Shown piece by piece: positions 2,905 to 19,627 of a DNA stretch of 64,000 bases; within the stretch, counting starts at the first letter, position 1, and every line of letters begins with the position of its first letter. Both the position numbers and the translations under genes were made by a program. The stretch is from contig PRDH01000021.1 in assembly GCA_003345545.1 (NCBI GenBank), positions 1 to 64,000 on the forward strand, in the 5' to 3' direction. The notes beneath the pieces are model-generated. The model was not told the origin of the DNA and did no database searches. It saw nothing but the letters and a program-made list of their open reading frames with translations. The DNA comes from Candidatus Thorarchaeota archaeon (lineage in GTDB: Archaea > Asgardarchaeota > Thorarchaeia > Thorarchaeales > Thorarchaeaceae).

Positions 2905-4119
2905 TCACACACCCCTCAGAACTGTGTCCGGTTCAGTTATCGCATTTCTCCATGATGGAATGACCGCCGCCACTAGGATAGGTACTACTCCAACTGCGTA
3001 CATAATGAAGACTGTTGAGAGCGAGATTGTGAGTGGAATTCCGCCTGGGAGAAGGTTGAGACTCCAACCAAGAAGATAGCCGGATATGACTGGTCCTCCC
3101 AGTATGAAGTCATAGATGACTGCAAATGAGATACCTAGGCTAACTCCTAGGAGACTGAGGGTGATGGACTCCAACATTCTAATCTCGAGAACATCCACTG
3201 TATCGAAGCCTAAGGCCTTTAACAGACCGACCTCCCTACGCGCCTCTTCTGATATGGCGCCTGATGCTGTGAAAGCAATGAGGACCACGGCCATGAGCAC
3301 GATGGTCCACAGAAGCGCTGCCATGCCCGCACGACCACCATAGGCTTTCAGCATAGAGTCACTGATGGCATCATGGGTCAGAACCCTTGCTTCTGGTATC
3401 TCTGTATCCAGTCTGAATGCCACACTGTTCGGATCTGCCCCGGGGGTCACCCACACAGCAATGTCGGTACAGGTATCGTTCTCGTATCCAAGCACGTCAC
3501 GCGCGCTGATGATATCGGTCAAAACCATGTCATAGCTGTATATCTTGGAGCCACTTGAGAACACACCGATGACTTCGAATTCGATGAGTTCGCCATCAAA
3601 AGTGATTAGCGATAGAATAGTTCCTACCTGCACATGCAGGGGCATAGCAGAAGCAGCCATCAGATCGATTATGCCCTGACCGATGATCATCTTTCCTCTA
3701 TCTGATTCATTGAGGAATCTTCCTTCCCCTACGATCTCTGTGCCAACAGCACCAATCATGTTTCCATACTCTGATGCATTGACTCCCATGATGGTGAGGA
3801 GACTTCCGCTGCCAACATCAGAGTAGCCCCAGATTCTCGGCGTAGCAGCCCGCACGCCCGTTGTTTCTGTGACATTTGTCACCCAGGCTGTTGGTATGGG
3901 TACCTGACGACCACCCACGAGTTTCTGAATGACAATATCCGACCCCTCATCCAGCGAACTTGAGATGTCCTGTACAACACCCTCCCTGATGAACTCGACC
4001 GAAGAGAGAATCGAAGTTGAGAAGAACAGGGCAATGATAATAGCTATGCTCCGTGTCCGATACTTCAGCACATTTCCCAACGCATAGCTTGCTAGATTAC
4101 TGTGTTTTCGTACTCCCAT
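2905..4119 (-). CDS. ABC permease, FtsX/MacB/LolC-E family
   Basis: One N-terminal TM, large extracytoplasmic domain, RREVGLLKALG motif, three C-terminal TMs. Confidence 0.9.
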   Translation of the reverse strand: MGVRKHSNLASYALGNVLKYRTRSIAIIIALFFSTSILSSVEFIREGVVQDISSSLDEGSDIVIQKLVGGRQVPIPTAWVTNVTETTGVRAATPRIWGYSDVGSGSLLTIMGVNASEYGNMIGAVGTEIVGEGRFLNESDRGKMIIGQGIIDLMAASAMPLHVQVGTILSLITFDGELIEFEVIGVFSSGSKIYSYDMVLTDIISARDVLGYENDTCTDIAVWVTPGADPNSVAFRLDTEIPEARVLTHDAISDSMLKAYGGRAGMAALLWTIVLMAVVLIAFTASGAISEEARREVGLLKALGFDTVDVLEIRMLESITLSLLGVSLGISFAVIYDFILGGPVISGYLLGWSLNLLPGGIPLTISLSTVFIMYAVGVVPILVAAVIPSWRNAITEPDTVLRGV

Positions 4120-4501
4120 AGCTTCTCCTTCCTAAGAGCAGTATCAATGACAAGGGTATCGCTGCAAAGAGAATTCCCAGCAAGATGATGCTCGGATCTA
4201 TGCTTGGTAGGCCATATGTCCAAGACTGAGGCACTGATGAGTCTGTCAGATTGCCGTGAGTCCCACCCTGCAATGGACTTCCAGTGTAGAGGGAATAGCC
4301 ACCGGGAACATCTCCAATGATGCCAAATGGCGATTCAACCCCCGGCGCTCGAATGTAGTATGAGTCCTGAACAATCGAAGGACCAATCTCGAAGAATGGC
4401 CATTGCACTGTCTGACCTTGATTCTGAGCAGTGATAGCATATCCAACGTTGAACGCAATCGACAGGAAAATGATGACAGCTAGTAATGTGCTCTTTCGCA
4501 T
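4097..4501 (-). CDS. Secreted, C-terminally anchored hypothetical protein
   Basis: Signal-like N-terminus (MRKSTLLAVIIF) and C-terminal TM followed by GRR; overlaps the permease start. Confidence 0.65.
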   Translation of the reverse strand: MRKSTLLAVIIFLSIAFNVGYAITAQNQGQTVQWPFFEIGPSIVQDSYYIRAPGVESPFGIIGDVPGGYSLYTGSPLQGGTHGNLTDSSVPQSWTYGLPSIDPSIILLGILFAAIPLSLILLLGRRSYGSTKTQ

Positions 4502-4514
4502 ACTCCCACCACAC

Positions 4515-4985
4515 TCATGGCCAGACATATGGATTCGAGATGATTATTCCGCTGTACTCATCTAGGAAGTGGCTCTCACAAGTTTCAACTTCAGGTGCAT
4601 CCTCGCACAGTGGCACTATTGTTGGCTCAATCGTCGTAGGATTAAGATACTCGGTTGAGTATGCCCATACAATCATAGGGTCGTCCCAGTCCATAAGCAT
4701 ACCACACATCGGACATCGAACCTGTACATTTTCGAGAGATTCAATCTGCTCATCATCGACTAGCACTTGGAAGGCCAAGAGTGAAACATTCACACAGCAG
4801 TAGTGCCTCGTTGTCCCGTTGTGAAACGTGAACGTCACTTCGTGCCCTATTCTACTCTGAATCTCGAGATGTGTGTAGTCACAGTAGTGGACTGTGGGAG
4901 TGAATATGGCAGTATAGGCGTAAATACCAAGACAGCCAGAGATGACCAGAAACACCTGAACCATCTTGCGCTGTTCGGAGTTCAT
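4515..4985 (-). CDS. Membrane-anchored NosL/TRASH-like metal-binding protein
   Basis: N-terminal TM; HYCDYTH, HYCCVN and CPMCGM motifs; further Cys near the C-terminus. Confidence 0.6.
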   Translation of the reverse strand: MNSEQRKMVQVFLVISGCLGIYAYTAIFTPTVHYCDYTHLEIQSRIGHEVTFTFHNGTTRHYCCVNVSLLAFQVLVDDEQIESLENVQVRCPMCGMLMDWDDPMIVWAYSTEYLNPTTIEPTIVPLCEDAPEVETCESHFLDEYSGIIISNPYVWP

Positions 4986-4998
4986 CCTGCTACCACCA

Positions 4999-5187
4999 TT
5001 ACTCGAGGCTCTTGAATCCACCAATAAGAGACATGACTGAAATTGTTGCGCCAAGGATGGTTTCGACTGTGCGTGTGTCCCAGCATCGCATCGGGTTAAT
5101 ACAGACTGGAACGAAGCTCCACGGCGCTATTGCTACAAATGCTCCCAGAATGAAGATCAGGACATAGAGGATTGAGATTAGTTTCAT
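4999..5187 (-). CDS. Small membrane protein, DUF4418-like
   Basis: Two TMs around PVCINPMRCWDT; AAGGTGA SD before ATG 5187. Confidence 0.55.
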   Translation of the reverse strand: MKLISILYVLIFILGAFVAIAPWSFVPVCINPMRCWDTRTVETILGATISVMSLIGGFKSLE

Positions 5188-5200
5188 CACATTCACCTTG

Positions 5201-5611
5201 TCACATTGTTGTAAGTTGTATAGAGAATGTCTGACTGATTGCTGCATTTCTGATGGGCGCATTGTCAAACGCTGTCACAAAGAACTGCGCATTATCGCTC
5301 TCATTGACTGGGCCGAACGTACCAACCCATCTTCCTCCAGCAATGCAAAGACACGCGAAGAATTGCATGTCTAGCACCGTCCAGGACTCTCCATCAAGTG
5401 AACTTGAGAGCTGAGCCCCTGACACGCCAGAGCGGTCTATGCAGTAGATCACGACGCTGATAGTGTCCCCTGCCACAGGCTGTACAGGCAAGATATCTAC
5501 TTCATAGATAAGAGGACCATCAGCATCTTCGAGGACGGCATTCATAATGATACCTGTGAGCGATATCATCACGATGGCACCTATGCAGACGAGTTTAGTT
5601 TGATTCCTCAT
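5201..5611 (-). CDS. Membrane-anchored Ig-like protein with CxC motif
   Basis: N-terminal TM, beta-rich domain, ACLCIAGG; first gene of a tightly packed operon. Confidence 0.6.
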   Translation of the reverse strand: MRNQTKLVCIGAIVMISLTGIIMNAVLEDADGPLIYEVDILPVQPVAGDTISVVIYCIDRSGVSGAQLSSSLDGESWTVLDMQFFACLCIAGGRWVGTFGPVNESDNAQFFVTAFDNAPIRNAAISQTFSIQLTTM

Positions 5612-5821
5612 CGAGCAGGCTCTACTCCCTGAATGACGTATCATCTCCCGCAGAAACAACGACTATACAATCTTTGCGCATAGTCAGGGAGATACCGATT
5701 TAGGTCGATTGTGTACAGGAATTGCGGGTGTGTAGCGTCCTCTCTATCTTCTTCTGATGTATGCTCCAGCGAATACCCCTCAATTACCCGAGAATATATG
5801 CAGTCGTACCCAATAACAGGT

Positions 5822-6277
5822 ATGGCAATCGAGGACACACTGATTGGTCTTGCCATTGGGCTAGTAGTGGCGGCTTGTGTCTATCTTCTTATGGGGATGC
5901 ACCTTCGGCATCGAATCTCCATCGTGACTAAGGAGTTTGAAAAGACATGGGCAGAGCAGGAATCCTCTGTTCGTAGGGATGCAGCAGACAGAAGTCGCTA
6001 TGTCCTGAAGGGCAAGATTGCAGAGCATATGGTTCCTCTCCTGCAGGATGTGTTCAAGTATGACCCATCAGATGCACGATTCATCGGCGCTCCCATCGAC
6101 TATCTGATCTTTGACGGCTATAGTGCTGTCAAGGATGACAGCTCAGATGAACCAATTGCTGTGATCCTTGCCGATATCAAGACAGGAGGCGCGAGTCTGA
6201 ACAGAACGGAGCGGAAAATCAAGGAAGCTGTCGAAGCAGGACGCGTTCGATGGGAAACTATCCAGCTCGATTTCTGA
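5822..6277 (+). CDS. Holliday junction resolvase-like endonuclease with N-terminal TM
   Basis: SRYVLKGKIAEHMVP, DARFIGAPIDYLIFDG, DIKTGGASL motifs of the archaeal-HJR-related endonuclease family. Confidence 0.85.
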   Translation: MAIEDTLIGLAIGLVVAACVYLLMGMHLRHRISIVTKEFEKTWAEQESSVRRDAADRSRYVLKGKIAEHMVPLLQDVFKYDPSDARFIGAPIDYLIFDGYSAVKDDSSDEPIAVILADIKTGGASLNRTERKIKEAVEAGRVRWETIQLDF

Positions 6278-6338
6278 GGTTAATACATTTATTGCAGCGT
6301 CACACAAAACGAATGCACAAAACTGAGAATAAAGAGAA

Positions 6339-6704
6339 TCACTCGCAGAAGCACTCTTTCATAATTGCTCGAATGACTGCGTCGTTGACTAGTTGTTCAT
6401 CTGGCAGACCCGTGAGCATTGTATCACAGATTTTGATGGTAGGCAGTGCCAATATGTCGTCCGTGCTGCATCCGCAGTCATCATTAGACTCGACATCTAT
6501 TGAGCGGATTGCGCTGCTTGAAACGCCGAAGTCAGAAAGAGCATCCTGGAGCATCTCTTCTGCTGTGTCGCAAAAGAGACAGAGCTCTCCTTTGTACATG
6601 ACAATGCACCCGCACCTCCCACAGGGCGTGGCTGTGGCCCTCGTGTCTGATACGGATTCTACATCGGCTTTCATCTGCTCATCCCATAGATTATGACGAG
6701 CCAT
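6339..6704 (-). CDS. Small Cys-rich hypothetical protein
   Basis: CxxC..CxxC, CGC and terminal CFC; AT-rich promoter-like region at 6755-6795. Confidence 0.5.
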   Translation of the reverse strand: MARHNLWDEQMKADVESVSDTRATATPCGRCGCIVMYKGELCLFCDTAEEMLQDALSDFGVSSSAIRSIDVESNDDCGCSTDDILALPTIKICDTMLTGLPDEQLVNDAVIRAIMKECFCE

Positions 6705-6934
6705 ATCCTGATATTGTACAGGTAAATCATCAGATCTGCTATGGCGCGTCGGTAATCTTATAATATAATAGCAGTCAATAGGTTATAAGCATAAGTTGTC
6801 TGTAGTGAAGAGCACTGAAGGATTACGTTGAACTAAACTCCTATTATGCCGATTGAGCCCTATCGCTGGAGCCAACAGAAACCAGCACTGTCACTCCAGG
6901 TTTCTAGGATTCGGCTGATGTGAGGTGAATCACC

Positions 6935-8626
6935 ATTCCACTATCGAGGTATCATGTCTTTTTACTAGCTCTTGTTCTCTCAGTGTCAGTACTTCCTACA
7001 GAGGTTCTGGCTGCAATGGACAGCAGCTTCATCCCAGTTGCTGAGAAGATCGATGTCCCATCTGTCACACGGACTTGGGATACGATCTCTCTACTCTATG
7101 AGGACCAGTTTCATGACCCTGCTGAAGTGGACGAAGAGATTGACAACATACAGAGTCTGGTTTCTGAGCTTGTAGACGTCGAAATCATCGGTGAGAGCAT
7201 CGAGGGAAGGAACATCACATGTCTTCGAATAACAAATGAGATGAATACTGTTCAGAAGGCAAAGACCTTGGTTTTGGCTCAGCACCACGGCCGTGAACAG
7301 ATCACTGTCGAACTCGCTCTGCGATTCGTTCTCTGGCTTCTCAATGGCTATGGTGTAGATACTGTGCTCACAGAGTATGTTGACACACAGGAGGTCTACG
7401 TGATTCCCACTCTGAATCCTGACGCCCTTGACATTGTTGTCAATGATGGTAATCACTGGCTCAGAAAGAACCTGCGCCCCTATGACAATGATGGAGATGG
7501 CCTATTCAGTGAAGATGATGCTGAGGACGCAGATGGTGATGGTTCTATCTCAGAGTACATTGTCTACCTCAAGAGCTATCCAACTGAAGTCCCTGCTATC
7601 CAGGACGCTGACTATTGGTATTATGAAGGAATTGACAATGATAATGATACCTTATTCAACGAGGATGAGATCGGGCTTGTTGATTTGAATCGTAACTACC
7701 CGAACTTCTGGGATTTTGGTGTGACAGATGTCACTACTCAGGAGTATCGTGGAACAACACCATTCTCAGAGCCTGAAACCCAAGCCTTCAGGGACTTTGC
7801 GCAGCAACATAAGTTCGCAATGGCCTATTCCCTGCACTCTGGGACCAATGCAACCCTCTTTGTCCAATCAGGAAGTAACTACTGGGTAGAACCTACTCTC
7901 TATTATCAGATGGCTAGTGACTATCGTGGCATTCTACCCTCCGGGTTCAATAATGGATTAGGCTATCCTGTTTTTGATGTACTGAATCTTGCATCAGCGA
8001 CTGCTGGGGGCTGGGGCGAGTGGATGTACTACGAACAAGACTGCACTGCACCGATAACCTTTGAGATCTACACAAATGAATCTGCAAATGTCGAAGATGC
8101 GTACGTGATCATAGTGAACAACAGTACGCATATCATCCGCGAGTGGGAGGGTATCTATGGCTACTTTGACCCGGTTGTTGAGCACATTCAGACACTCTGG
8201 CTTGAACTCCTTCCGGCCTTTGAGTACCTTCTAGAGATGACCCCGCGGATCGACATAGATATCACAGGCATATCGGGAGGAATCAACACAGGGGAAACCT
8301 TGACTCTCACGACCTCGATGCACTGTCTGAGTTCACGATTGGGTAGCAAGGAATCAGTCACGCTTCTTGGTAATGAGAGCGAAGTGCTTGATACGATGAC
8401 TACGGTTGAAGCTAGTCAGACTCTGACGGACGAAGCGTCCTTCATTCTGTCTAAAGACCTGTCAGACTCGGGCTACACTATCTCGATAGGCAACAACTAC
8501 ACAGGTTACGCTCGGTTCGTTCTGTCTTTGGGCAGTCCGGCGGGCCCTGACCTAGTACTCAGCGGAATCGGTATCGGCATCGTGTTAGCTGCAATCGTTA
8601 TCATCGTCTACCTGAAACGCCGATGA
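6935..8626 (+). CDS. M14 zinc carboxypeptidase, secreted and C-terminally anchored
   Basis: HHGRE Zn motif, NPD, RKN, VDLNRNY, FSEPET, SLHS; DxDxDG Ca-type loops; C-terminal TM+KRR. The frame extends upstream of GTG 6983 to a signal peptide behind a GAGGTGA SD. Confidence 0.9.
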   Translation: MPLSRYHVFLLALVLSVSVLPTEVLAAMDSSFIPVAEKIDVPSVTRTWDTISLLYEDQFHDPAEVDEEIDNIQSLVSELVDVEIIGESIEGRNITCLRITNEMNTVQKAKTLVLAQHHGREQITVELALRFVLWLLNGYGVDTVLTEYVDTQEVYVIPTLNPDALDIVVNDGNHWLRKNLRPYDNDGDGLFSEDDAEDADGDGSISEYIVYLKSYPTEVPAIQDADYWYYEGIDNDNDTLFNEDEIGLVDLNRNYPNFWDFGVTDVTTQEYRGTTPFSEPETQAFRDFAQQHKFAMAYSLHSGTNATLFVQSGSNYWVEPTLYYQMASDYRGILPSGFNNGLGYPVFDVLNLASATAGGWGEWMYYEQDCTAPITFEIYTNESANVEDAYVIIVNNSTHIIREWEGIYGYFDPVVEHIQTLWLELLPAFEYLLEMTPRIDIDITGISGGINTGETLTLTTSMHCLSSRLGSKESVTLLGNESEVLDTMTTVEASQTLTDEASFILSKDLSDSGYTISIGNNYTGYARFVLSLGSPAGPDLVLSGIGIGIVLAAIVIIVYLKRR

Positions 8627-8719
8627 GAGCGTTATGAGTGAACAAGTAGTCGTACAGTGTAGGAATAGGATACTTGATAACAGCGCGTGGATGCACAGGT
8701 CTCGGAGACTGGACAGCCT

Positions 8720-9289
8720 ATGCACTTCAAGAAACTGGTTGGCAGAATATGCTACCTCTCACCAGTCAGCAAAGACTCAGCAGAGAGCTGGGCAAGATGG
8801 GATAATGACCTTGAGGTTGGAGTTCCAATGGGGAACGAGGCCTACACTCCATCAACAATCGAATCAACAGAGGAGAACATCGCCTCGATCATCAAAGAGA
8901 AGGCACATGGGTTCGATATCCTTGAAATCGAGTCCGACAATCTCATCGGCCGATGTTTCTTGGGCTCCTTGGACAATGTCAATCGAAGTTGCAGGCTAGG
9001 AATCGTGATTGGCGAGAAGACGCACTGGGATAGAGGGTTTGGAACCGAGGCGGTCAATCTACTCCTCGAGTATGCGTTCAATATCCTCAATATGAACAGT
9101 GTCAATCTCGGGACATACTCATACAACAAGAGGGCCATCGCCTGCTACAAGAAAGTTGGATTCAAGGAGATCGGGCGACGGCGAGAGTCTCGTATAATCG
9201 GTGAGAAAAAGTACGATACCATAATGATGGATATGCTGGCTTCGGAGCATGAAACAGTGTACCTTGCCGATGTTTTTCCAGTTGAGTAA
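8720..9289 (+). CDS. GNAT acetyltransferase, RimJ/RimL-like
   Basis: WDRGFGTEA and YNKRAIACYKKVGF motifs. Confidence 0.9.
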   Translation: MHFKKLVGRICYLSPVSKDSAESWARWDNDLEVGVPMGNEAYTPSTIESTEENIASIIKEKAHGFDILEIESDNLIGRCFLGSLDNVNRSCRLGIVIGEKTHWDRGFGTEAVNLLLEYAFNILNMNSVNLGTYSYNKRAIACYKKVGFKEIGRRRESRIIGEKKYDTIMMDMLASEHETVYLADVFPVE

Positions 9290-9383
9290 CTCTGCTGTCA
9301 CCTCACTACTACCTTAGTTCATCCTGGTCCTCCCTTGTAGTTATATGGTGGATCATCGTACGCAGCCTCTCTAGGGTGATTCC

Positions 9384-9785
9384 TTGGAACGAACAGCATA
9401 CCACAGGTACATGTATAGGGTCGCAGCAGTCTGGAACTGGATTCTGTCTCTGAGCTTTCTTATCCTTCCCAGGATTGATATTGCATACTTCTCAATAGCA
9501 GGTCCTATGGCTCCCCCACCGACACTTCTCTGGTTTGACTGCTTCTTTGGGCTCACCATTGCATTTGGACTTGGATTCTACATCATCAGTAGGAGCACAA
9601 CTGAGAATCACGGACTCATCGAGATTGCCATCTTTGAGAAAGCATGGGTCTTTGTGATTGGGCTCTACTACTTCCTTATCGCTCAAGCATCAATTTGGGT
9701 GCTTGTTGTTGTATCAGGAGACCTTCTGTTTGGCATTCTGTTCCTTGAAGATCTGAGGTCCATAATGAAGTCGACTACCAAATGA
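9384..9785 (+). CDS. 4-TM hypothetical membrane protein
   Basis: Four hydrophobic helices; GGGTGA SD before TTG. Confidence 0.7.
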   Translation: MERTAYHRYMYRVAAVWNWILSLSFLILPRIDIAYFSIAGPMAPPPTLLWFDCFFGLTIAFGLGFYIISRSTTENHGLIEIAIFEKAWVFVIGLYYFLIAQASIWVLVVVSGDLLFGILFLEDLRSIMKSTTK

Positions 9786-9882
9786 GGACAGGCTTCAAAT
9801 CGAAACAGCCATATTGCTCGAGAGAGAACAACAACTCCGGAGGAGTTGATTTGATGCGTCAGAAACAGAGCATCATCCAGAT

Positions 9883-10128
9883 GTGAGTGGAAAGGACGAG
9901 AAAGTTACAAGAGTCGTCGGGCGGGCATGCGTCGTCACAATATGGGGCTTTGTCATACTTGGTTACATCATCTGCTATGTTGTCGAACAATACTACGGAT
10001 ATGCCATGTACTATGGTATGATCGTGTTCCTGGTCCCTGCAATCATTGTCACCATTCTTTTTGTGATTGGCACAACGACTGGCTGGCTATTGAAACGTCG
10101 CTCAGGGCACCAAGCACTCGATGAATAG
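9883..10128 (+). CDS. Small 2-TM membrane protein (DUF2178-like, possibly truncated)
   Basis: DEK...RA followed by two TMs. Confidence 0.45.
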   Translation: MSGKDEKVTRVVGRACVVTIWGFVILGYIICYVVEQYYGYAMYYGMIVFLVPAIIVTILFVIGTTTGWLLKRRSGHQALDE

Positions 10129-10216
10129 GATCTCATTGCTATCTCATTCCTGAATACAGCTCGGGACTTCCGAGATACGATGTTATTTCACATCCAGAGA
10201 TGACTATGTCTGAAGA

Positions 10217-10564
10217 ATGCCCATGGAAAATGTTGTATTAGATCAGAGTCTACATCTAGCGGAGTCTGAATTGACGGGACTGGATGAGATTCGCGTTGCC
10301 CTAAAGGGAGTAGAGGAATTGCGAAGAGAAGGGATTGATGCCCGAGTCGAGATTCTTGACAGTGAAGAGGACTCAAGGCCCGGAGTCCCTCTAAGGTCTT
10401 TCAAGGATCTACAGGAATTCATCACCCAACGATACAGCAGAATGCTTGTCACTGGAGTAGACTCTGCCATTCCTCTCGATGACTTCGAAAGGTTAGTCGC
10501 TGAGACCACCACCCGTCTACTTGACGACACTAAGAGAGTCCGCGCTGTAGTGCGAGTTGGCTAA
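10217..10564 (+). CDS. Hypothetical protein
   Basis: 115-aa soluble ORF with plausible composition, co-oriented with neighbours. Confidence 0.55.
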   Translation: MPMENVVLDQSLHLAESELTGLDEIRVALKGVEELRREGIDARVEILDSEEDSRPGVPLRSFKDLQEFITQRYSRMLVTGVDSAIPLDDFERLVAETTTRLLDDTKRVRAVVRVG

Positions 10565-10624
10565 TTGGATATCTGCTCGATGCGATGTGCATCTTTTAAA
10601 TGAGAACTATAGTTAGCCAGACAT

Positions 10625-11041
10625 ATGGCACACACTTTTTCCCTCAGGATAGACCAGATTCAGCTGAGCCAGCTTTACATCAGTTCAGCAAAACTCGCAG
10701 ATGTGATGAGCGCCTTCGAGAATAAACTTGAAGGCAGCTTAGGGCCTATCCCCATTAAGGAGATTGACGGAAAACTGGTTGCTACTGATGGGCATACACG
10801 GCTCCTAGCTTGGCATCTTCATGGCTACGAAGAGGTGGATTGCGAGTGGGAAGACACAGAGATGGATTGGGAGGCGTATCGTGTCTGCATGCAGTGGTGC
10901 AGAGAGGAAGGAATTCAGACTGTTGCCGATCTCAATAACAGAATCATTAGTCCTGAAGACTATAAGGTGCTATGGCTTGATAGATGCCGAGTCATGCAAC
11001 ATGCGCTTGAAATGAAGAATCATCGAAACAACGTGCAGTAA
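10625..11041 (+). CDS. ParB/Srx N-terminal-like domain protein
   Basis: LSQLYIS..K and PIPIKEIDGKLVATDGHTR (DGHxR motif). Confidence 0.7.
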   Translation: MAHTFSLRIDQIQLSQLYISSAKLADVMSAFENKLEGSLGPIPIKEIDGKLVATDGHTRLLAWHLHGYEEVDCEWEDTEMDWEAYRVCMQWCREEGIQTVADLNNRIISPEDYKVLWLDRCRVMQHALEMKNHRNNVQ

Positions 11042-11064
11042 GAAAAAGGTTTCATGAAGCTCCT

Positions 11065-13014
11065 CTACTTCAGCGGTACATGAGGTGAAGACTCCCGAAA
11101 GTTGACGTTGGCAGCATGAGATACATTGTGCCTTCTTCTTAGCCAAGAAGCCACACCCCACGAGGGTAATGTTGATAGTGCTGCCATAAGTCCAAGATTG
11201 GGATAACAGAGTCCGATTATACAGAGCCACATGTAGTAACAACCGACTATGAATGGGCCCCCCAGAACACCCAGACTTAGTAATGGATCTGTTTCCTTAC
11301 GAGACAATTCGTGGCTGATAGAATTAGCACGTGTTGCAATCAAGTAACCAAGATAGATGATTGGTATCCAATAAAGGAACACAATTGCAATGATATTCGG
11401 GAGTAAGTAGCTACTTGGTGCTGGTGTTAGTTGACTCAGGGGTGTCCACCAGAGCGTTGTAAAGAGTGGAACCATGACTGCTCCAGATACACTACTGAAC
11501 GGATCTTCACTTGTATCGAAATTGTAGGTCACCCATGGGAAAAACATTGTAATAAAGTACAACGAAACCGGAAGCAAGTTTGTCCTGAGATTATAGTCCG
11601 TTACAATTCCTGCAAAACTCCTTTTGGCTGCACCATGAATCAGGAGCATGAGCAGTAGTGCAGTTGCCAATATTCCAAGTATCTGTCCCCAATCAAGTAT
11701 GACCCCGAAAGCAGAGAATTGAGAAAAGACAACAGTCACACGGACATTTGAGCTTCCAGCTGTATAGATTCCAAATGCTGCAGTTGCTTGTCTGTAATTG
11801 TAGTGCGCATAGTCAATGAATCGGTGGCCCTCATACACAAGAGGCCTCACATGAATGCCGATACTTGTTCTATTGGGCAGATATAGATACTCTGCATCCT
11901 GAAGAGGATAATCAATCATGTAGTAGGCAACCCCATCTAGAACAGTGACTCTGCTATAAGCAAAGGATGGGTATATGTCAATATACAGCCGTGATGCAGG
12001 AATTCTAATATTGACAAGAATGGATTCATCGGGCCCGACTGAGAAGCTGATATTGATCATGGAATCCAATAGACTATGTCCATGTTTGTAAAACCACCCT
12101 GTTCTTCCCTCATATGTCCCCTCAGCAAGAAAGAGGGTTTCATTGGCGACTCGTGGACCAAATTTGGATGAATCAGTACTATTTCCTGTTCGTGTCAATT
12201 CTACTGCGGGATAGCTGCCCTTTTCTTCGTCGATGTTAGAACCAGCGTGTCTGAGTGATTTCATGTAGGGGTTAAGGAATAGACTCTCTCCATCAGGAGC
12301 TTGAATATCAAACGTGACAGGGAATAGGTTCTCGTTCGAATCAGCTGAGATCACTACATCGCCAATCAAAACTAGTGACTTTTCTGTTGATGCGATCTCT
12401 ACAAGCATTGTAGTTCGGACAATCCATCCAGAACTAAGATTGAATGCTCCACTAAGAGGTGGTTTGCAGACTAAAGTTCCAGACTGACCCTCATCCAAAT
12501 ATGTGCTGTTCTCACCCGCCTCACACCAATTGGGATCGGGCCATGCCCCATAACTGACTCTTAGGCTTGCATTTGCCGAGCCAAGTAGAACTCTGATGTT
12601 TATTGAGAAACTCACCTGAGAATAATTGAACAAAGGCAGAGTAGGGCTTCCGGCAAAACCGATATGTGAGTTGACAATATATCCATCGGGTCGAATACTA
12701 ACACCATCAAGCTCCAGTGTTACACCTTGTGATTCATCGTGGCTCCTGCAAGAGCTCTCGTATAAGATATACCAGTCCGCACCCGGGTCATTGACAGTAC
12801 CATTGTAGACGACTACGCTCGTTCTTTGTGGGTATTCCTCTCTATAGATTGTATATCCTATTGTTCCTTCTATTGAACTTTCATCCCTAGCAATGAAGGC
12901 TGGTTCTAAAGTTCTATGCAGTATTGAGATGACTGGAGCGGTTACAAACATAGTAACGGCGACTAGTACAACTATTTCTTTGAGTCTACGCCCATGTTTC
13001 TCTAGGATTCCCAC
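11065..13014 (-). CDS. Large extracellular-domain polytopic membrane protein
   Basis: Signal/TM, ~400-aa extracellular region with NxS/T sites, ~5 C-terminal TMs; GAGGGTGA SD; more AT-rich than its flanks. Confidence 0.75.
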   Translation of the reverse strand: MGILEKHGRRLKEIVVLVAVTMFVTAPVISILHRTLEPAFIARDESSIEGTIGYTIYREEYPQRTSVVVYNGTVNDPGADWYILYESSCRSHDESQGVTLELDGVSIRPDGYIVNSHIGFAGSPTLPLFNYSQVSFSINIRVLLGSANASLRVSYGAWPDPNWCEAGENSTYLDEGQSGTLVCKPPLSGAFNLSSGWIVRTTMLVEIASTEKSLVLIGDVVISADSNENLFPVTFDIQAPDGESLFLNPYMKSLRHAGSNIDEEKGSYPAVELTRTGNSTDSSKFGPRVANETLFLAEGTYEGRTGWFYKHGHSLLDSMINISFSVGPDESILVNIRIPASRLYIDIYPSFAYSRVTVLDGVAYYMIDYPLQDAEYLYLPNRTSIGIHVRPLVYEGHRFIDYAHYNYRQATAAFGIYTAGSSNVRVTVVFSQFSAFGVILDWGQILGILATALLLMLLIHGAAKRSFAGIVTDYNLRTNLLPVSLYFITMFFPWVTYNFDTSEDPFSSVSGAVMVPLFTTLWWTPLSQLTPAPSSYLLPNIIAIVFLYWIPIIYLGYLIATRANSISHELSRKETDPLLSLGVLGGPFIVGCYYMWLCIIGLCYPNLGLMAALSTLPSWGVASWLRRRHNVSHAANVNFRESSPHVPLK

Positions 13015-13388
13015 TTCACCCTCACGCGAACATACCTGGCCCGCTCGGACTAATTAATACTTGCACTCACCGTTGGGGTTAATGAGGAATCCTTCTTCTT
13101 TCGGATTTCGCTTCAGCAGCACGTAAATGCTGCTTCATATGTCACTGAAGCTTGGATTGAAGTGTCTCTCCTGTTTTATGGGTATTAGAAACCAAGGGAT
13201 TCTATATGATTGAAGCTGCTCCTTATCCAATCATGACTAGCGATAGACTCAAAGATGACCTTCTCGATTGCACGACTGGCTTCTTGGATGATATTGGAGG
13301 ATTCTAAACCCCGCCATTTTGAGGATGATTGGGTTTTGATTTGCTGAAGAAGACTGCCAAGCCCTGCTCTCAACCAAGACAACATTCC

Positions 13389-13991
13389 TCACGGCTTCTC
13401 CCAGAATCCGGCGACTCCTGTCCTTATTCGTGACCCTAGTTGTTTCAGTGCATCAGGAGCATATTCTGGCTTAAGCCATATAAAGAATAGGACAAAGAAG
13501 ATGATGACGATGACTACGGCAGCAATTGCAGGAGCTGCGCCAGCCAGTGTTCCGAGTGAGTCGGCGCTGGTTGTTTCTGTGGTTGATGTTGTACTGGTAG
13601 GCTGCGAATTGGTCGCAGTGGTAGACGTAACAATCAACCATGTAGTGAGGGAGTCTCCCCTACTGCAGAATCCAGTGACAGTAAGATTGTCACCTATGAC
13701 GGTTGAAACACTAAACGTGTCATTCATTCCCCAACTAAATGATTGGTTTTCATAGGATCTGTTCAGCAGGGAAACGCCATTCTTCTGAATCTCAATGGTT
13801 TCAATGTGGTGCGTCTTAGTATTTACGACAGAGTGTGAAACGTTCACCGAAAGGACCTGTGAACCAAAATCATAGACAAGTAGCATATTGGACGGATTTG
13901 TGGCGGCGCCGAGTGGAATATTGGCAAGACCTGTCAGTATCGTGAGTGCGATGACTACAGCTATACCCGCAATCTGCTTCTTAGAACTCAT
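13389..13991 (-). CDS. Secreted Ig-like protein with Thr/Ser linker and TM anchor
   Basis: Signal peptide, beta domain (SH..THHIE..GDNLTVTGFC), TST linker, TM; the frame continues past an in-frame TGA. Confidence 0.7.
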   Translation of the reverse strand: MSSKKQIAGIAVVIALTILTGLANIPLGAATNPSNMLLVYDFGSQVLSVNVSHSVVNTKTHHIETIEIQKNGVSLLNRSYENQSFSWGMNDTFSVSTVIGDNLTVTGFCSRGDSLTTWLIVTSTTATNSQPTSTTSTTETTSADSLGTLAGAAPAIAAVVIVIIFFVLFFIWLKPEYAPDALKQLGSRIRTGVAGFWEKP

Positions 13992-14170
13992 ACCAATTCA
14001 CGTTGTGATAGTTGATGCTATGATATAATAAGCGTATTTTGGCCAGCTATTTGGGCCGTGCAGGCTTGACTCTCTTCTCTGGGCGAGAACGAATATGCTC
14101 CTTGACTCAACTCAGAAAGATGATGCATAAGGCGTCCTTTCGCCTGAAACGACATACAGGGCCTGCGAAC

Positions 14171-14581
14171 CTATTTTAGAGGCACGTAAGAGCTGCTTTT
14201 TGTCGCACCGATTCCCGGGTTACCATGCTTGACGGGTTTGATTGTAAGGCTGAATTCACCGAGGACATGTCCAATCATCTGAGGGATGATCTTGACCCGT
14301 TGGAACTCCTTACCATTATGTACAGCAATGGTGAGGTCGACCATCTCAGGAAGAATGACCATGTCACGGCAGTGGGTCTTTACAACAACATCTTTCCCCT
14401 TCTTGACCTGCTTCCTGGCTGCTCTGAGATTCATCAGGAGCTTCTTCTGTCTCTGAGGAAGGCCTCTTTTGAGAGTCCTTCTTCTGCGTGAAGGGAGCAG
14501 TTCAATGAGCGAGTCCATGTTCATCTTGACTAGCTCAGAGAGGGGATACCCACGATACATTGGTTCGCCTTTTTGTGACAT
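14171..14581 (-). CDS. rps19p: 30S ribosomal protein S19 (uS19), archaeal type
   Basis: [51 protein letters not shown]. Confidence 0.98.
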
Positions 14582-14815
14582 GCAATCACCTAGGATGATA
14601 GATTGGGATGGTAGTGACCACCCGAAACACCGGTCAAGCGAGAGAGTCCGGATTTAAGGATTGCGCAACAGCCGCATGAAACCGGCACAACATCGACAAT
14701 CGTCGGGTGGATTACAGTGGAAAACCGGTGTTATCACTATAGGAGATATCCTCCAGCTCAGTACGTCCATGATGACCACCGACGAAACCATCCAGCAATT
14801 CCGCCTGTTCCATGA

Positions 14816-15151
14816 CTATCCTGGTGGGCTTGGCTTTGGAGAGCCTCGATGGGTTTCAATGTATGCCAGCAGGACACATAGCCCCAAGAATGACAGAGTG
14901 TTTAGAATATCGATGACGATGAACTTCTGTTCCAAAGGCAAACTGACATGAGTCACGACGACCAAGTCTGTCATAAGGGCTAGAAACAGCCATGATACTG
15001 CGAATACAACAACTTCGATTGCTGCAATCGCCCAGTACAGGCGCCTAGTTGCACGATTTCTATAACCAAGTATGACAGCCAATAGCGCAAGAATCACAAC
15101 AGCAGCTAGCAGGACTGCCAAGCTTATTCTAGGACCAAGCATTGCCTGCAA
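14816..15151 (-). CDS. 3-TM hypothetical membrane protein
   Basis: Three hydrophobic helices. Confidence 0.6.
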   Translation of the reverse strand: MQAMLGPRISLAVLLAAVVILALLAVILGYRNRATRRLYWAIAAIEVVVFAVSWLFLALMTDLVVVTHVSLPLEQKFIVIDILNTLSFLGLCVLLAYIETHRGSPKPSPPG

Positions 15152-15310: not shown

Positions 15311-15865
15311 TCACGCCTCGGGCTTGACGATAACGTTGCCCTTGTCATCCAGCAAACCTGCCTTCCTCATGGCAACACGGACCCACCCCAACGACTCTTC
15401 CAGACCCGGGTCTCTCACCAAGGCCAGTCGTGCCAGTTCAATTGCTTTCTCCCATCGCTCAAGTTCATAGTTGATCTCAGCCATGTGGAGAATTGCCAGC
15501 GCCATCCTGTCCTCCATATCAACTGCAATCTCGAGACTCCGCAATGCATCCTCAAAGAGCCCTACGTTCCTCAAGAGAACGCCTTTGTTGAAATATGGGA
15601 TTGGGTCGTCTGGATTCATCGCAGCGGCAGCGTCCAACTGCTGTAGTGCCTCTTGTGTGAGAGGGCTATCCTTGTCAGGCCTATCCTGAGCCTGCATGAG
15701 AGCAACTGCTAGACTAATCCTCGCATTCTTGTTGTCAGGTCTTCTTGATAGTATGTTCCTCAGGAGATCAATTGCTTCTTTGGTCTGCCCGTTAGCAAGT
15801 TTCGTTGCTGCCTGTTCATACTCTTTATCTCTGGGACGTCCGAATCGGGGCACTGAAAACACCAT
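15311..15865 (-). CDS. Tetratricopeptide repeat protein
   Basis: TPR consensus, e.g. PYFNKGVLLRNVGLFEDALRSLEIAV. Confidence 0.85.
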   Translation of the reverse strand: MVFSVPRFGRPRDKEYEQAATKLANGQTKEAIDLLRNILSRRPDNKNARISLAVALMQAQDRPDKDSPLTQEALQQLDAAAAMNPDDPIPYFNKGVLLRNVGLFEDALRSLEIAVDMEDRMALAILHMAEINYELERWEKAIELARLALVRDPGLEESLGWVRVAMRKAGLLDDKGNVIVKPEA

Positions 15866-18351: not shown

Positions 18352-19551
18352 ATGAGCCTAATCTATGATAGAGATACTTGCACAGGATGCATGCTCTGTC
18401 CGAAGGCCTGCAACTTCGGAGCAATCATGAAAGACGGTGATAAGGTCAAGTTTGATTTCGACAAGTGTGTCCTCTGCGGCTCGTGCGAAGAAGTCTGCCC
18501 CGTGGACGCCATCAAGATCGAGCGGAAGAAGATCGATCCTAGCAAGATTGCTGAGTACAAGAATGTCTGGGTCTTCTGCGAGACCACCGGAGGACGGCTG
18601 AGAAGTGTTGCCCTGGAGCTCGTCACGAAAGGCAGAGAACTTGCCGATAAGCTGGGTGAGAGACTTGTCGCTGTGATCATTGGTAGTGATATTACAGGTC
18701 ATGCTCAGACCCTTGTTCATCATGGTGCGGATGAAGTACTTGTAGTAGATGCAAAGATATTTGCAGATTATACTACCGATGCATATGCCATTGCTATGAC
18801 GTCACTCATTGCGTCCAGAAAGCCTGCTGTTGTTCTCTACGGCGCGACCAGCAATGGCCGTGACCTTGCACCCCGTATTGCGGCTCGGCTCGGGCTGGGT
18901 CTCACAGCTGACTGTACTGGTCTTGAGATCGATGAGAAGCGTCAACTCATTCAGACCAGACCTGCCTTTGGCGGCAACATCATGGCTGAGATCATCACTC
19001 CCTCCACTCGCCCTCAGATGGCAACAGTGCGTCCGAACGTCTTCAAACCCAAAGAACCTGACACCTCACGCAAGGGAAAGATCGAGAAGGTGAACATGCA
19101 GGTCAGCCCTGTCCAGGTTCGAACGCGAGTCTTGGAGAAGGTGAGTGAGGTCGTTGAGGGTATGAAGGCAGTCGATGAGGCTGATATAATCGTCTGCAGT
19201 GGGCGAGGAATCAAGGATCCGGCGAACCTTGAGCTGCCCAGGCAACTTGCAAAACTGCTTGATGCTGCTATTGGGGGGTCCCGCCCCATCGTTGATATGG
19301 GCTGGCTTCCTCCAACACAACAGGTCGGGCAATCAGGGAGAACAGTCTGTCCGAAGCTCTACTTTGCGCTCGGAATATCTGGAGCTATTCAACATCAGAT
19401 CGGAATGGCCTCAAGTGATACCATAGTTGCCATCAACAAGGACCCAGAAGCTCCGATTTTCAGTATAGCGGACTTTGGAATTGTAGGAGACCTCTTCACG
19501 GTCTTGCCCGAAGTGATTGCAGAGGTAAAACGAGTATTAGATTCAAGATAG
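18352..19551 (+). CDS. etfA: Electron transfer flavoprotein subunit alpha with N-terminal 2x[4Fe-4S] ferredoxin
   Basis: Two CxxCxxCxxxC motifs, then GLTADCT, RPQMATVR, QVGQSG, GISGAIQH, AINKD. Confidence 0.97.
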   Translation: MSLIYDRDTCTGCMLCPKACNFGAIMKDGDKVKFDFDKCVLCGSCEEVCPVDAIKIERKKIDPSKIAEYKNVWVFCETTGGRLRSVALELVTKGRELADKLGERLVAVIIGSDITGHAQTLVHHGADEVLVVDAKIFADYTTDAYAIAMTSLIASRKPAVVLYGATSNGRDLAPRIAARLGLGLTADCTGLEIDEKRQLIQTRPAFGGNIMAEIITPSTRPQMATVRPNVFKPKEPDTSRKGKIEKVNMQVSPVQVRTRVLEKVSEVVEGMKAVDEADIIVCSGRGIKDPANLELPRQLAKLLDAAIGGSRPIVDMGWLPPTQQVGQSGRTVCPKLYFALGISGAIQHQIGMASSDTIVAINKDPEAPIFSIADFGIVGDLFTVLPEVIAEVKRVLDSR

Positions 19552-19570: not shown

Positions 19571-19627
19571 TTCTTGCTCCATTCAACATATTGTAATATT
19601 CACGCAAAAATCCGATCTGCGGCAAAC

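Follow-up and report, generated by a model that had tools for sequence, protein, structure and literature searches.

Stacked ends of the ribosomal protein gene rps19 and their cargo genes in a Thor-type Asgard family

The rps19 locus

Here, we report the analysis of an rps19 locus at which copies of the gene's own 3' end lie among unrelated genes. The window (the whole 64,000-nucleotide stretch of Candidatus Thorarchaeota DNA that was analysed, from genome G000) carries the following features at this locus, given in the order in which the minus strand is read.

14171..14581, minus strand: rps19 (uS19), stand-alone (PF00203, E=1e-31, 109 bits against a cut-off of 27)
14171..14254, minus strand: live tail unit, 27 codons in all (F codon 14254-14252, stop 14173-14171); in relatives, this segment recurs and is swapped
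14114..14170, minus strand: post-stop spacer, the terminator-like part of the unit (hairpin GGCG-AAAGGA-CGCC at 14144-14131, plus the T-rich CCTTATGCATCATCTTTCT motif)
13389..13991, minus strand: cargo of cassette 1, an ORF for a 200-aa protein with a signal/anchor sequence, a Thr/Ser-rich stalk, and a C-terminal TM
11019..13276, minus strand: segment that G001, the closest relative, lacks according to blastn and pairwise alignments; it spans fossil 1, the membrane gene, and fossil 2
13108..13134, minus strand: fossil 1, probably the decayed remnant of a displaced tail, SSIYVLLK, whose stop was lost or deleted (18/24 nt shared with the live tail)
11065..13014, minus strand: cargo of cassette 2, a 649-aa ORF resembling a membrane glycoprotein (family F1), its C-terminus extended by 11 residues, FRESSPHVPLK, from a displaced tail
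11064..11093, minus strand: fossil 2, the nine final codons and stop of a displaced tail, with which the 649-aa ORF now ends (nhmmer E=3.1e-4)
10625..11041, plus strand: distal flank, a convergent 138-aa ORF (called ParB-like in an earlier note on this DNA), 90% identical to G001 at the nucleotide level, with no Pfam family

A profile search of the window's genome returned this rps19 as the single PF00203 match; the L22-S3-L29-S17-L14 cluster of the same genome lies on a different contig and is without rps19. Assignment to uS19 was made on the PF00203 score above the curated cut-off and on the conserved archaeal/eukaryotic C-terminal tail, which ends KSSSYVPLK-stop in the window and is conserved in 210 of the 251 Asgard genomes searched. 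The repeated rps19 3' unit comprises some 27 codons with their stop, together with a hairpin and its T-run. Tail copies of relatives start with the F codon or the E/F codons and end at the stop, and a GCCTTATGCATCC-type motif is also found 3' of the tails in G001, G005, and G022. For the 200-aa protein, no Pfam family scored above the cut-off; its homologs (cluster C35) are located within the rps19 stacks of G001 and G017. The 649-aa protein had no Pfam match and drew only weak structure-atlas matches (TM 0.32 or lower), to beta-sandwich surface proteins; we describe it as membrane glycoprotein-like and assign no function.

Tail remnants and a fused membrane protein

The earlier note had placed two displaced uS19 ends in the order rps19, secreted gene, fossil, membrane gene, fossil. 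That order was confirmed (200-aa gene, fossil 1, 649-aa gene, and fossil 2, proceeding 3' from rps19), as was its minus-strand reading of fossil 1, which runs AGC AGC ATT TAC GTG CTG CTG AAG CGA from 13134 to 13108 and is followed at about 13104-13076 by a hairpin (AATCC-N10-GGATT) and TCATT. An nhmmer profile was built from the tail units of relatives only, with those of the window left out. Across the whole window it recovered fossil 2 (30 nt, 11093-11064) at E=3.1e-4, and it gave fossil 1 a nonsignificant E=8.8. With the window's own 24-mer as the query, fossil 1 was the sole match of at least 18/24; 0.043 such matches are expected per shuffled window (both strands), and the chance is ~1e-4 when limited to the 375-nt intergenic stretch in which fossil 1 lies. 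A six-frame scan of the window returned three 6/8 peptide matches beyond rps19, two of them the fossils, on the same strand and at most 3.1 kb downstream, and the third (42826-42849) not related to the stack.

The hairpin and T-rich motif seen after tail copies in relatives are also present after both fossils. At fossil 2, the remnant of the post-stop hairpin and T-run extends to about 11033, the post-stop GGAGCTTCATGAAACCTTTTTCT is similar to the post-stop part of the G011 and G043 units, and an exact 15-nt GTACCGCTGAAGTAG is held in common with the G011 copy. Both fossils are thus read as remnants of displaced rps19 3' units, securely for fossil 2 and probably for fossil 1, which is weak on sequence alone and is accepted because it matches the tail of the window itself, sits in the expected place, and has the hairpin.

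The 649-aa ORF ends in frame with ESSPHVPLK-stop at 11091-11065, as first noted for its last eight residues (SSPHVPLK). Alignment with G005 and G011 showed that the window is short by a net 62 nt, which took in the stop of the passenger, the spacer, and ~12 codons at the start of the tail copy; the last nine codons and stop of the copy stand in frame with the membrane gene. The loss took away the stop and so fused nine tail codons to the 649-aa ORF, which supports the proposal that the passenger lost its own stop and borrowed the displaced tail. Homologs were predicted to lack VPLK, and among the 25 found (all Thor-type), none carried the VPLK end or the extension; full-length homologs stop ~10 residues sooner, at ...HANHVNS or similar. 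Orthologs of the gene in relatives have near-perfect uS19-end copies on their flanks, with the ortholog's stop 8 to 30 nt upstream of an intact tail copy, so the suggested comparison of the fossils with relatives' uS19 ends also bore out their origin. The membrane gene is 62 to 66% identical between species, comparable to a flanking core gene.

Relatives were further expected to offer empty sites, and these exist in whole or in part. In G006, rps19 is followed directly by an H+-PPase gene; in G001, the 200-aa gene abuts the ParB-like gene, and the membrane gene and both fossils are lacking. The window thus holds an old stack of two cassettes in which both displaced ends have decayed. The scale is larger than the earlier note had it: the locus is a worn-out instance of a cassette stack that occurs family-wide and is still active, and tail copies in relatives are not simple fossils.

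Stacks and tail copies in relatives

Direct tail copies on the same strand, 2 to 8 per genome, were found in 18 of the 28 genomes of the genus, and tail stacks also in 12 genomes of sister genera; outside the family, none of the Asgard genomes searched had a tail stack. Tail copies were present on 70 metagenome contigs (up to 5 copies per stored stretch), and one 42.6-kb metagenome contig held 10. All genomes are metagenome assemblies, with many stacks broken across contigs. An assembly artefact was considered as the source of the stacks and rejected, as copies differ in DNA sequence and turn up repeatedly, in 18 MAGs and in dozens of contigs independent of one another.

Flanks of the stacks are conserved between genomes, and the cargo between copies varies in content and order (a membrane gene and then an MFS gene in G012; the reverse in G024). 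Cargo includes MFS and ABC transporters, membrane proteins, flavodoxin, NosD-like proteins, and radical SAM enzymes, and some cassettes carry nucleases (Mrr/PDC-S02, PLD/DrmC-like, and PD-(D/E)XK). The commonest small cassette gene (C27, 159 aa) had been considered as a small nuclease; alignment ruled this out and identified a 4-TM membrane protein. Distal copies tend toward more decay (G009, G013, G020, and the window), the insertion in G001 is gene-proximal, and in G015 two tail units stand back to back, 90 nt apart, resembling an empty cassette. Among other gene ends, that of etfA has similar stacks. A search for orphan gene ends throughout G000 (16-aa tails, 10 or more matches) left only etfA and one or two doubtful cases once tandem paralogs were set aside, so end stacking is not general to all genes. 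A candidate tail duplicate of a TPR gene showed weak similarity (RIVMEQAELLD versus RVAMRKAGLLD) and was not counted as evidence.

The copies are conserved as protein. Across 38 copies of the uS19-end peptide, codon positions 1 and 2 are mostly 92 to 100% conserved (less so in the Ser-Ser and Asn codons) and position 3 is largely free. Pairs of copies inside one genome differ at up to 18 of 21 codons with zero amino-acid change, and copies 3' of the membrane gene in seven genomes show 223 synonymous versus 47 nonsynonymous codon differences, whereas under neutrality 74% would be expected to be nonsynonymous. A simple duplication of the target site with neutral decay afterwards was therefore rejected, because copies differ almost only at synonymous sites. 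The post-stop hairpin (10 to 11 bp, with a T-run and a terminator-like look) is conserved 3' of each tail copy.

Functional tails have been swapped between lineages, and the 5' and 3' parts of rps19 have discordant histories. Third-position divergence of body and tail is uncorrelated among live genes (r=0.18); between the window and G001, it is 0.22 for the body and 0.55 for the tail. The window's live tail matches the displaced copy of G001 at 55 of 60 positions, versus 51 of 63 for the live tail of G001. In two pairs of strains, the sequence is 100% identical from the F codon on; the tail that serves as the live end in one strain sits behind a cassette in its partner, as a displaced copy. 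Breakpoints in near-identical pairs fall at -25 to +47 of the unit, and one such pair contains a 30-nt conversion patch, both in favour of an exchange guided by homology.

Origin of the stacks and what they mean

 Among about 45 cargo ORFs, no recombinase, transposase, or homing-endonuclease family was found, LAGLIDADG, HNH, and GIY-YIG were not detected, and no integrase or replication module was found inside the elements; Pfam and PADLOC scans of cargo and flank ORFs returned no mobility gene. PF00589 has no match in the window's genome and is present in 8 of the 28 genomes of the genus, never on stack contigs; PF00239 was found in 2 and PF01797 in 0 of 5 stack-bearing genomes tested. None of the three families tracks the stack-bearing genomes. 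Viral contigs scanned for the tail with a degenerate DNA pattern gave 0 matches, and hence no virus or plasmid with the unit was found.

The reading that we prefer, at a probability of roughly 0.6, is homology-guided stacking of rps19 ends in this family, with the window as an old two-cassette stack. Incoming DNA would be spliced, time and again, into the final ~27 codons of rps19, and each piece would bring working end codons of its own, a stop, a terminator-like hairpin, and behind these one to four cargo genes. The end already in place would be displaced downstream, yielding cargo, old end, cargo, older end. Homology appears to guide the exchange, with the rps19 body as the left arm and a displaced end as the right arm, and gene conversion probably acts between ends; there is no sign of an enzyme carried by the cassettes. 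Because each incoming end has to complete a ribosomal protein that is essential, amino acids would be kept while synonymous sites drift apart. The arrangement of the repeats, the conservation of the copies as protein, the swapped tails, the 62-nt loss, and the lack of known recombinase families are observations; the homology-guided route and the direction of each event are inferred.

Several observations sit less easily with that route. The F codon is kept in 57 of 110 unique copies and the preceding E in only 23, and recent events join exactly at the E/F junction. This remarkably sharp 5' edge fits a site-specific cut at least as well as a single founding boundary that was inherited, and counts against the homology route. 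Conservation is higher in the noncoding post-stop hairpin than at synonymous positions of the tail, which simple homology-driven exchange does not predict. Copies behind an apparently vertically inherited cassette (that of the membrane gene) still keep their protein sequence, which would require repeated refreshment or selection in place. No circular or excised intermediate was seen directly, nor any pair of donor and recipient.

Two other routes would invoke an enzyme, and we consider the first rather unlikely. In it, as in the homing of WHO elements in yeasts, a nuclease from a cassette or elsewhere would cut sensitive rps19 ends, and repair templated on a donor with the cassette would copy in a resistant, synonymously recoded end with its cargo while pushing the old end downstream. 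The architecture agrees point for point with the yeast WHO/FBA1 model (PMC7282813; 10.64898/2026.08.13.744650). Such homing would account for the scrambling of synonymous sites even between close relatives and for junctions clustered at one spot, and the nucleases of some cassettes are candidates for the enzyme. However, most cassettes consist of ordinary cargo alone, the homing-endonuclease families searched for are missing from the cargo ORFs, the top small cassette gene encodes a membrane protein, and third-position diversity extends across the whole 60 nt and is not concentrated in a recognition site. The second, which we judge unlikely, is site-specific recombination in trans, in the manner of integrons or Xer-exploiting elements: a host or transient recombinase would recognise the E/F junction, the post-stop hairpin, or both, and would insert and excise cargo-only circles. 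Cargo-only cassettes between repeated units, their genome-to-genome variation in content and order, the sharp 5' edge, the conserved hairpin adjoining each unit, and the empty-cassette-like pair in G015 all suit it, but no tyrosine, serine, or Y1 recombinase family is common to stack-bearing genomes or adjoins the stacks, and breakpoints are scattered through the unit with no single crossover point. The end of etfA stacks as well, and a single att sequence therefore cannot account for the process.

Chance or convergence, by which both peptide matches would be unrelated to rps19 or VPLK would be a functional C-terminal motif of the membrane protein, is very unlikely. It could draw on the 18/24 identity and the E value of 8.8 for fossil 1, and on the one unrelated 6/8 peptide match elsewhere in the window. 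It is already refuted for fossil 2, which an independent profile detects and which sits exactly where relatives have an intact copy; no membrane-protein homolog bears the motif, the post-stop hairpin is kept at both fossils, and fossil 1 occupies the expected slot between two cassettes.

A broader interpretation of the stacking is offered tentatively. In Thor-type Asgard archaea, the ends of rps19 and of a few other genes, such as etfA, may form a gene-capture platform without an element-encoded integrase or nuclease, in which the portable unit is a translatable end plus hairpin and the ends stay functional because cassettes are reversibly gained and lost. It would be an archaeal counterpart of the integron, working on a different principle.

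The closest known analogue is the yeast WHO/FBA1 system. WHO homing elements occur at the aldolase gene FBA1 in Torulaspora and Lachancea yeasts, each unit being a replacement 3' end with a gene behind it (Coughlan et al. 2020, PMC7282813; Osborne et al. 2026 preprint, 10.64898/2026.08.13.744650). At rps19, as at FBA1, each integration replaces the 3' part of a host gene that is essential and highly conserved, displaced 3' ends and older units cluster downstream with the newest next to the gene, and the history of the gene's 5' part disagrees with that of its 3' part (here, the r=0.18 above, the comparison of the window with G001, and the strain pairs). The rps19 system differs in that the organism is an archaeon, which offers no diploid meiosis as an arena, that the target is rps19 with only about 27 codons replaced, and that units carry arbitrary cargo without a LAGLIDADG/zinc-finger or other recognisable homing endonuclease; displaced rps19 ends are translatable far more often than the decaying FBA1 fragments of yeasts.

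Self-encoded integrative elements also target gene 3' ends; phage 21 and e14, for example, integrate at icd of E. coli. Their direct repeats of the target 3' end and their tandem accretion are both found at rps19. Tycheposons at tRNA genes of Prochlorococcus likewise target gene 3' ends and accrete in tandem (Hackl et al., 10.1101/2020.12.28.424599). With elements of the tycheposon type, rps19 stacks have in common that the incoming element restores the target's 3' end and leaves a displaced partial copy at its far end, that new arrivals push older ones deeper, and that partial target copies are dispersed in the cargo island. Such elements bring a tyrosine recombinase of their own, often together with replication genes, whereas no gene of this kind was found in or beside the rps19 stacks and PF00589 is absent altogether from most genomes of the genus.

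Integrons, too, reportedly occur in archaeal MAGs, as described by Ghaly and colleagues in 2022. The likeness to rps19 stacks lies in a cargo-only cassette array with a repeated recombination unit and one fixed anchor site, in strain-variable content and order, and in cargo that includes defence and transport genes. Unlike an integron, the rps19 array has no intI beside it, its repeat is the coding end of an essential gene, followed by the terminator-like hairpin, where an integron has attC palindromes, and its cassettes may carry several genes in either orientation.

For genome analysis, the repeats cause assemblies to break at rps19, which is in standard use as a phylogenetic marker, and a swapped tail can distort marker-gene trees. 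HO has been proposed as derived from WHO elements, and a WHO-like architecture without a recognisable nuclease makes it testable whether homology alone or an unknown enzyme drives the stacking. In the window, one small deletion turned nine ribosomal-protein codons into the C-terminus of a membrane protein, a gene birth in miniature. For the family, the rps19 site is a recurrent, precisely bounded route of entry and exit for transporters, surface proteins, and defence-candidate genes, and through this stacking a ribosomal protein gene becomes a mosaic.

Displaced rps19 ends in the window

rps19 is the sole uS19 gene in the 2.69-Mb assembly (PF00203 search) and stands isolated, with a TPR gene upstream; the L22-S3-L29-S17-L14 cluster lies on a different contig, without rps19. 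In the window's own genome (G000, a Thor-type Asgard MAG), that cluster (L22-S3-L29-...-S17-L14, C12:32849-36651) begins with L22, preceded by unrelated ORFs. That rps19 comes last in its own transcription unit may be why its end is open to insertions. The locus reads as follows.

14171-14581, minus strand: rps19 (uS19; PF00203, 109 bits)
13389-13991, minus strand (as rps19): gene for a 200-aa surface-type protein, first downstream of rps19
13134-13108, minus strand: fossil 1, AGC AGC ATT TAC GTG CTG CTG AAG CGA, between the 200-aa and 649-aa genes
11065-13014, minus strand: gene for a 649-aa membrane protein, C-terminus ESSPHVPLK*, downstream of fossil 1
Beyond the 649-aa gene: convergent 138-aa ORF, last in the series downstream of rps19

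The earlier note had recognized two decayed, displaced uS19 ends here, fossil 1 and fossil 2 (11064-11093), and its coordinates and sequence readings at the locus were correct. An nhmmer profile built from 90-nt tail units (the last ~27 rps19 codons, stop, and hairpin with T-run) of relatives only was searched against the whole window and matched the live tail, still joined to the rps19 body (E=2e-17), the membrane gene end (11093-11064, E=3e-4), and, weakly, the fossil 1 region (13126-13111, E=8.8). Compared with the final 24 nt of the window's rps19, 13134-13111 matched at 18/24 positions, the sole match that good in the window (chance rate, 0.043 per shuffled window). Both fossils are followed by a short hairpin and T-rich motif, as are tail copies elsewhere. 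In another alignment, AAGCGA of fossil 1 corresponds to the AAGCGA that follows the stop in other units, the K and stop codons having been deleted; fossil 1 is probably a remnant under either alignment.

The 649-aa protein had been proposed to have lost its own stop and borrowed a displaced tail. Its 25 homologs, always from Thor-type Asgard archaea, lack the VPLK end as expected (0/25), and the full-length ones stop ~10 residues earlier. Same-genus orthologs of the gene have near-perfect uS19-end copies on both sides, with 8-30 nt between the ortholog stop and the downstream copy. Against two of these genomes, G005 and G011, the window is short by a net 62 nt (a 55-nt and a 7-nt gap): the passenger's stop, the spacer, and ~12 codons from the start of the tail copy are missing, so that the last nine codons and stop of the copy are read in frame with the 649-aa ORF, as proposed. 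The empty site sought in relatives was found in G006, where an H+-PPase gene directly follows rps19; in the closest relative, G001, the 200-aa gene abuts the 138-aa ORF, and window 13276-11019 is wholly absent. A further proposal, a duplicated TPR-gene tail behind a 3-TM passenger (14740-14830 versus 15311-15400, minus strand), is insecure, RIVMEQAELLD and RVAMRKAGLLD being only weakly alike. In relatives rps19 directly follows the TPR gene, so the 111-aa ORF (14816-15151) is an insertion.

Spread and layout of the stacks

Two to eight tail copies were present in 18/28 genomes of the genus. In a 251-genome phylum sample, multi-copy genomes were confined to this family (11/15 genomes of the genus and 12 from six sister genera), and every genome with a match outside it had exactly one copy. 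A scan of metagenome contigs with a degenerate pattern of the tail gave 70 stretches, many of them holding 2-5 copies, and a 42.6-kb contig with ten; all genomes compared were metagenome assemblies. Copies were invariably direct repeats on the rps19 strand, spaced 0.09-4.6 kb apart, and the intervals hold one to four cargo genes, which can be oriented either way. Cassette order varied between conserved flanks (membrane gene then MFS in G012, MFS then membrane gene in G024, both same-genus relatives). In another relative, G015, two complete tail units stand back to back as an "empty cassette" (C188 [L032], 12412-12561, minus strand; 90 nt start to start), so the minimal unit would be ~27 codons, the stop, and a few bases. 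The single-contig genome G254, from a sister genus, has two full-length uS19 frames (160 aa each), inverted and 55 kb apart (C1:1263512-1263601, minus strand, and 1318902-1318991, plus strand).

Coding constraint and driver of movement

Across 38 displaced copies (20 codons from V to K, plus stop), codon positions 1 and 2 were mostly 92-100% conserved and position 3 largely free; the Ser-Ser and Asn codons were less conserved at positions 1 and 2, from AGY/TCN switches. Copies in the same genome differed at up to 18/21 codons with amino acids unchanged, AGC/TCN serine switches included, and 28/38 copies had ≤1 amino-acid difference from the consensus. For copies that follow the membrane gene (seven genomes), 223 codon changes were synonymous and 47 nonsynonymous; random change is expected to be 74% nonsynonymous. 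This synonymous bias indicates that, for the greater part of its past, each copy was a functional uS19 end maintained by selection.

Third-position divergence of body and tail was uncorrelated (r=0.18, 14 live genes); for the closest pair, the window and G001, it was 0.22 in the body and 0.55 in the tail. The window's live tail was 55/60 identical to the G001 displaced copy, versus 51/63 to the G001 live tail, and that displaced copy is separated from the G001 rps19 body by a cassette of HerA-like and unknown genes. In two near-identical strain pairs, the strains share a tail and downstream flank with 100% identity starting at the F codon, the tail being live in one partner and, in its counterpart, displaced behind a cassette. 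Such swapped tails suggest that new material arrives next to the gene body, bringing a new end.

XerA-type recombinases are expected in most archaea. The tyrosine recombinase model (Phage_integrase, PF00589) had no match in the 93%-complete G000 and matched only 8/28 genomes of the genus, so that in G000 and the 20/28 without a match a XerA-type recombinase went undetected with this model. Presence of serine and Y1 recombinases did not correlate with stacks, no recombinase, transposase, or homing-endonuclease family matched among the cargo ORFs examined, and the tail unit had no match in the viral contigs scanned. Among near-identical sequences sharing one neighbour, identity ended at positions ranging from -25 to +47 relative to the V codon of the unit, and one pair differed solely by a 30-nt patch within the tail; the scattered breakpoints and the patch look like the marks of homologous exchange with gene conversion. 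In the simplest route, incoming DNA would undergo a double crossover, once in the rps19 body and once where the displaced end of the donor meets the live end of the recipient; this would swap the live end and add one cassette.

Homologous exchange fits poorly with the sharp 5' edge of the unit (F codon kept in 57/110 unique copies, the preceding E in only 23; recent joints at E|F), with a non-coding hairpin more conserved than synonymous sites, and with copies intact behind an apparently vertically inherited cassette; a site-specific enzyme or homing nuclease may therefore be the driver. One lineage shows nearly base-for-base conservation across units over the 55 nt that follow the stop (e.g., the post-stop regions of tail units at L044:897-961 and L018:11881-11945), in the order GGCTCTTTTCT, loop, AGAGAAGAGCT, then GTTCTTTCATTTT, a conservation not found at the synonymous sites of the coding tail beside it. 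It could represent a terminator or a site for recognition.

Other gene ends, known systems, and cargo

A second gene in the window carries a similar arrangement.

18352-19551: etfA
19574-20098, plus strand: 174-aa 4-TM passenger behind etfA
About 20195-20257, plus strand: orphan etfA end (14/16 residues, 5 synonymous differences in 45 nt, hairpin after)

The etfA locus (19574-20257) is the same kind of event as at rps19. Up to five copies of the etfA end occur in relatives (G011), and genes homologous to the etfA passenger often form cassettes in rps19 stacks. In G015, an orphan etfA end (C188:16953-17042, minus strand) shares contig and strand with seven rps19 tail copies, just past the most proximal. 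Stacks with different anchor genes may mix.

The yeast WHO elements at FBA1 (PMC7282813; 10.64898/2026.08.13.744650) share this architecture: an essential gene receives a new 3' end, its former ends pile up downstream, and its 5' and 3' parts have discordant histories. The rps19 stacks lack the defining endonuclease gene and are therefore not members of the WHO family. Tycheposons and other integrase-bearing tRNA-gene elements (10.1101/2020.12.28.424599) leave similar partial-target repeats but carry their own recombinase. Integrons resemble the stacks as arrays of cargo-only cassettes, but the stacks have no intI and appear to lack classic attC sites. A literature search found no paper connecting Thorarchaeota and rps19.

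The finding at rps19 is real and the reading of it in the earlier note is supported; the window holds a worn-out two-cassette example of a family-wide, probably still active stacking, plus a small gene fusion. Cargo includes MFS and ABC transporters, membrane proteins, flavodoxin, NosD-like beta-helix proteins, a papain-like giant protein, ankyrin and TPR proteins, and a radical-SAM cluster; among small genes in the cassettes, the one seen most often encodes a 4-TM protein. Defence candidates are Mrr/PDC-S02 (type IV restriction-like, E=3.5e-140), PLD/DrmC-like, PD-(D/E)XK, HD-CE/HATPase, and HerA/mad8-like genes; they lie at L032 (G015:C188) 3483-12246 and at L033/L029 (G015, G001), and the HerA/mad8-like ATPase shares its cassette with two unknown partners. 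In some species, these candidate genes probably make the rps19 stack a defence island too.
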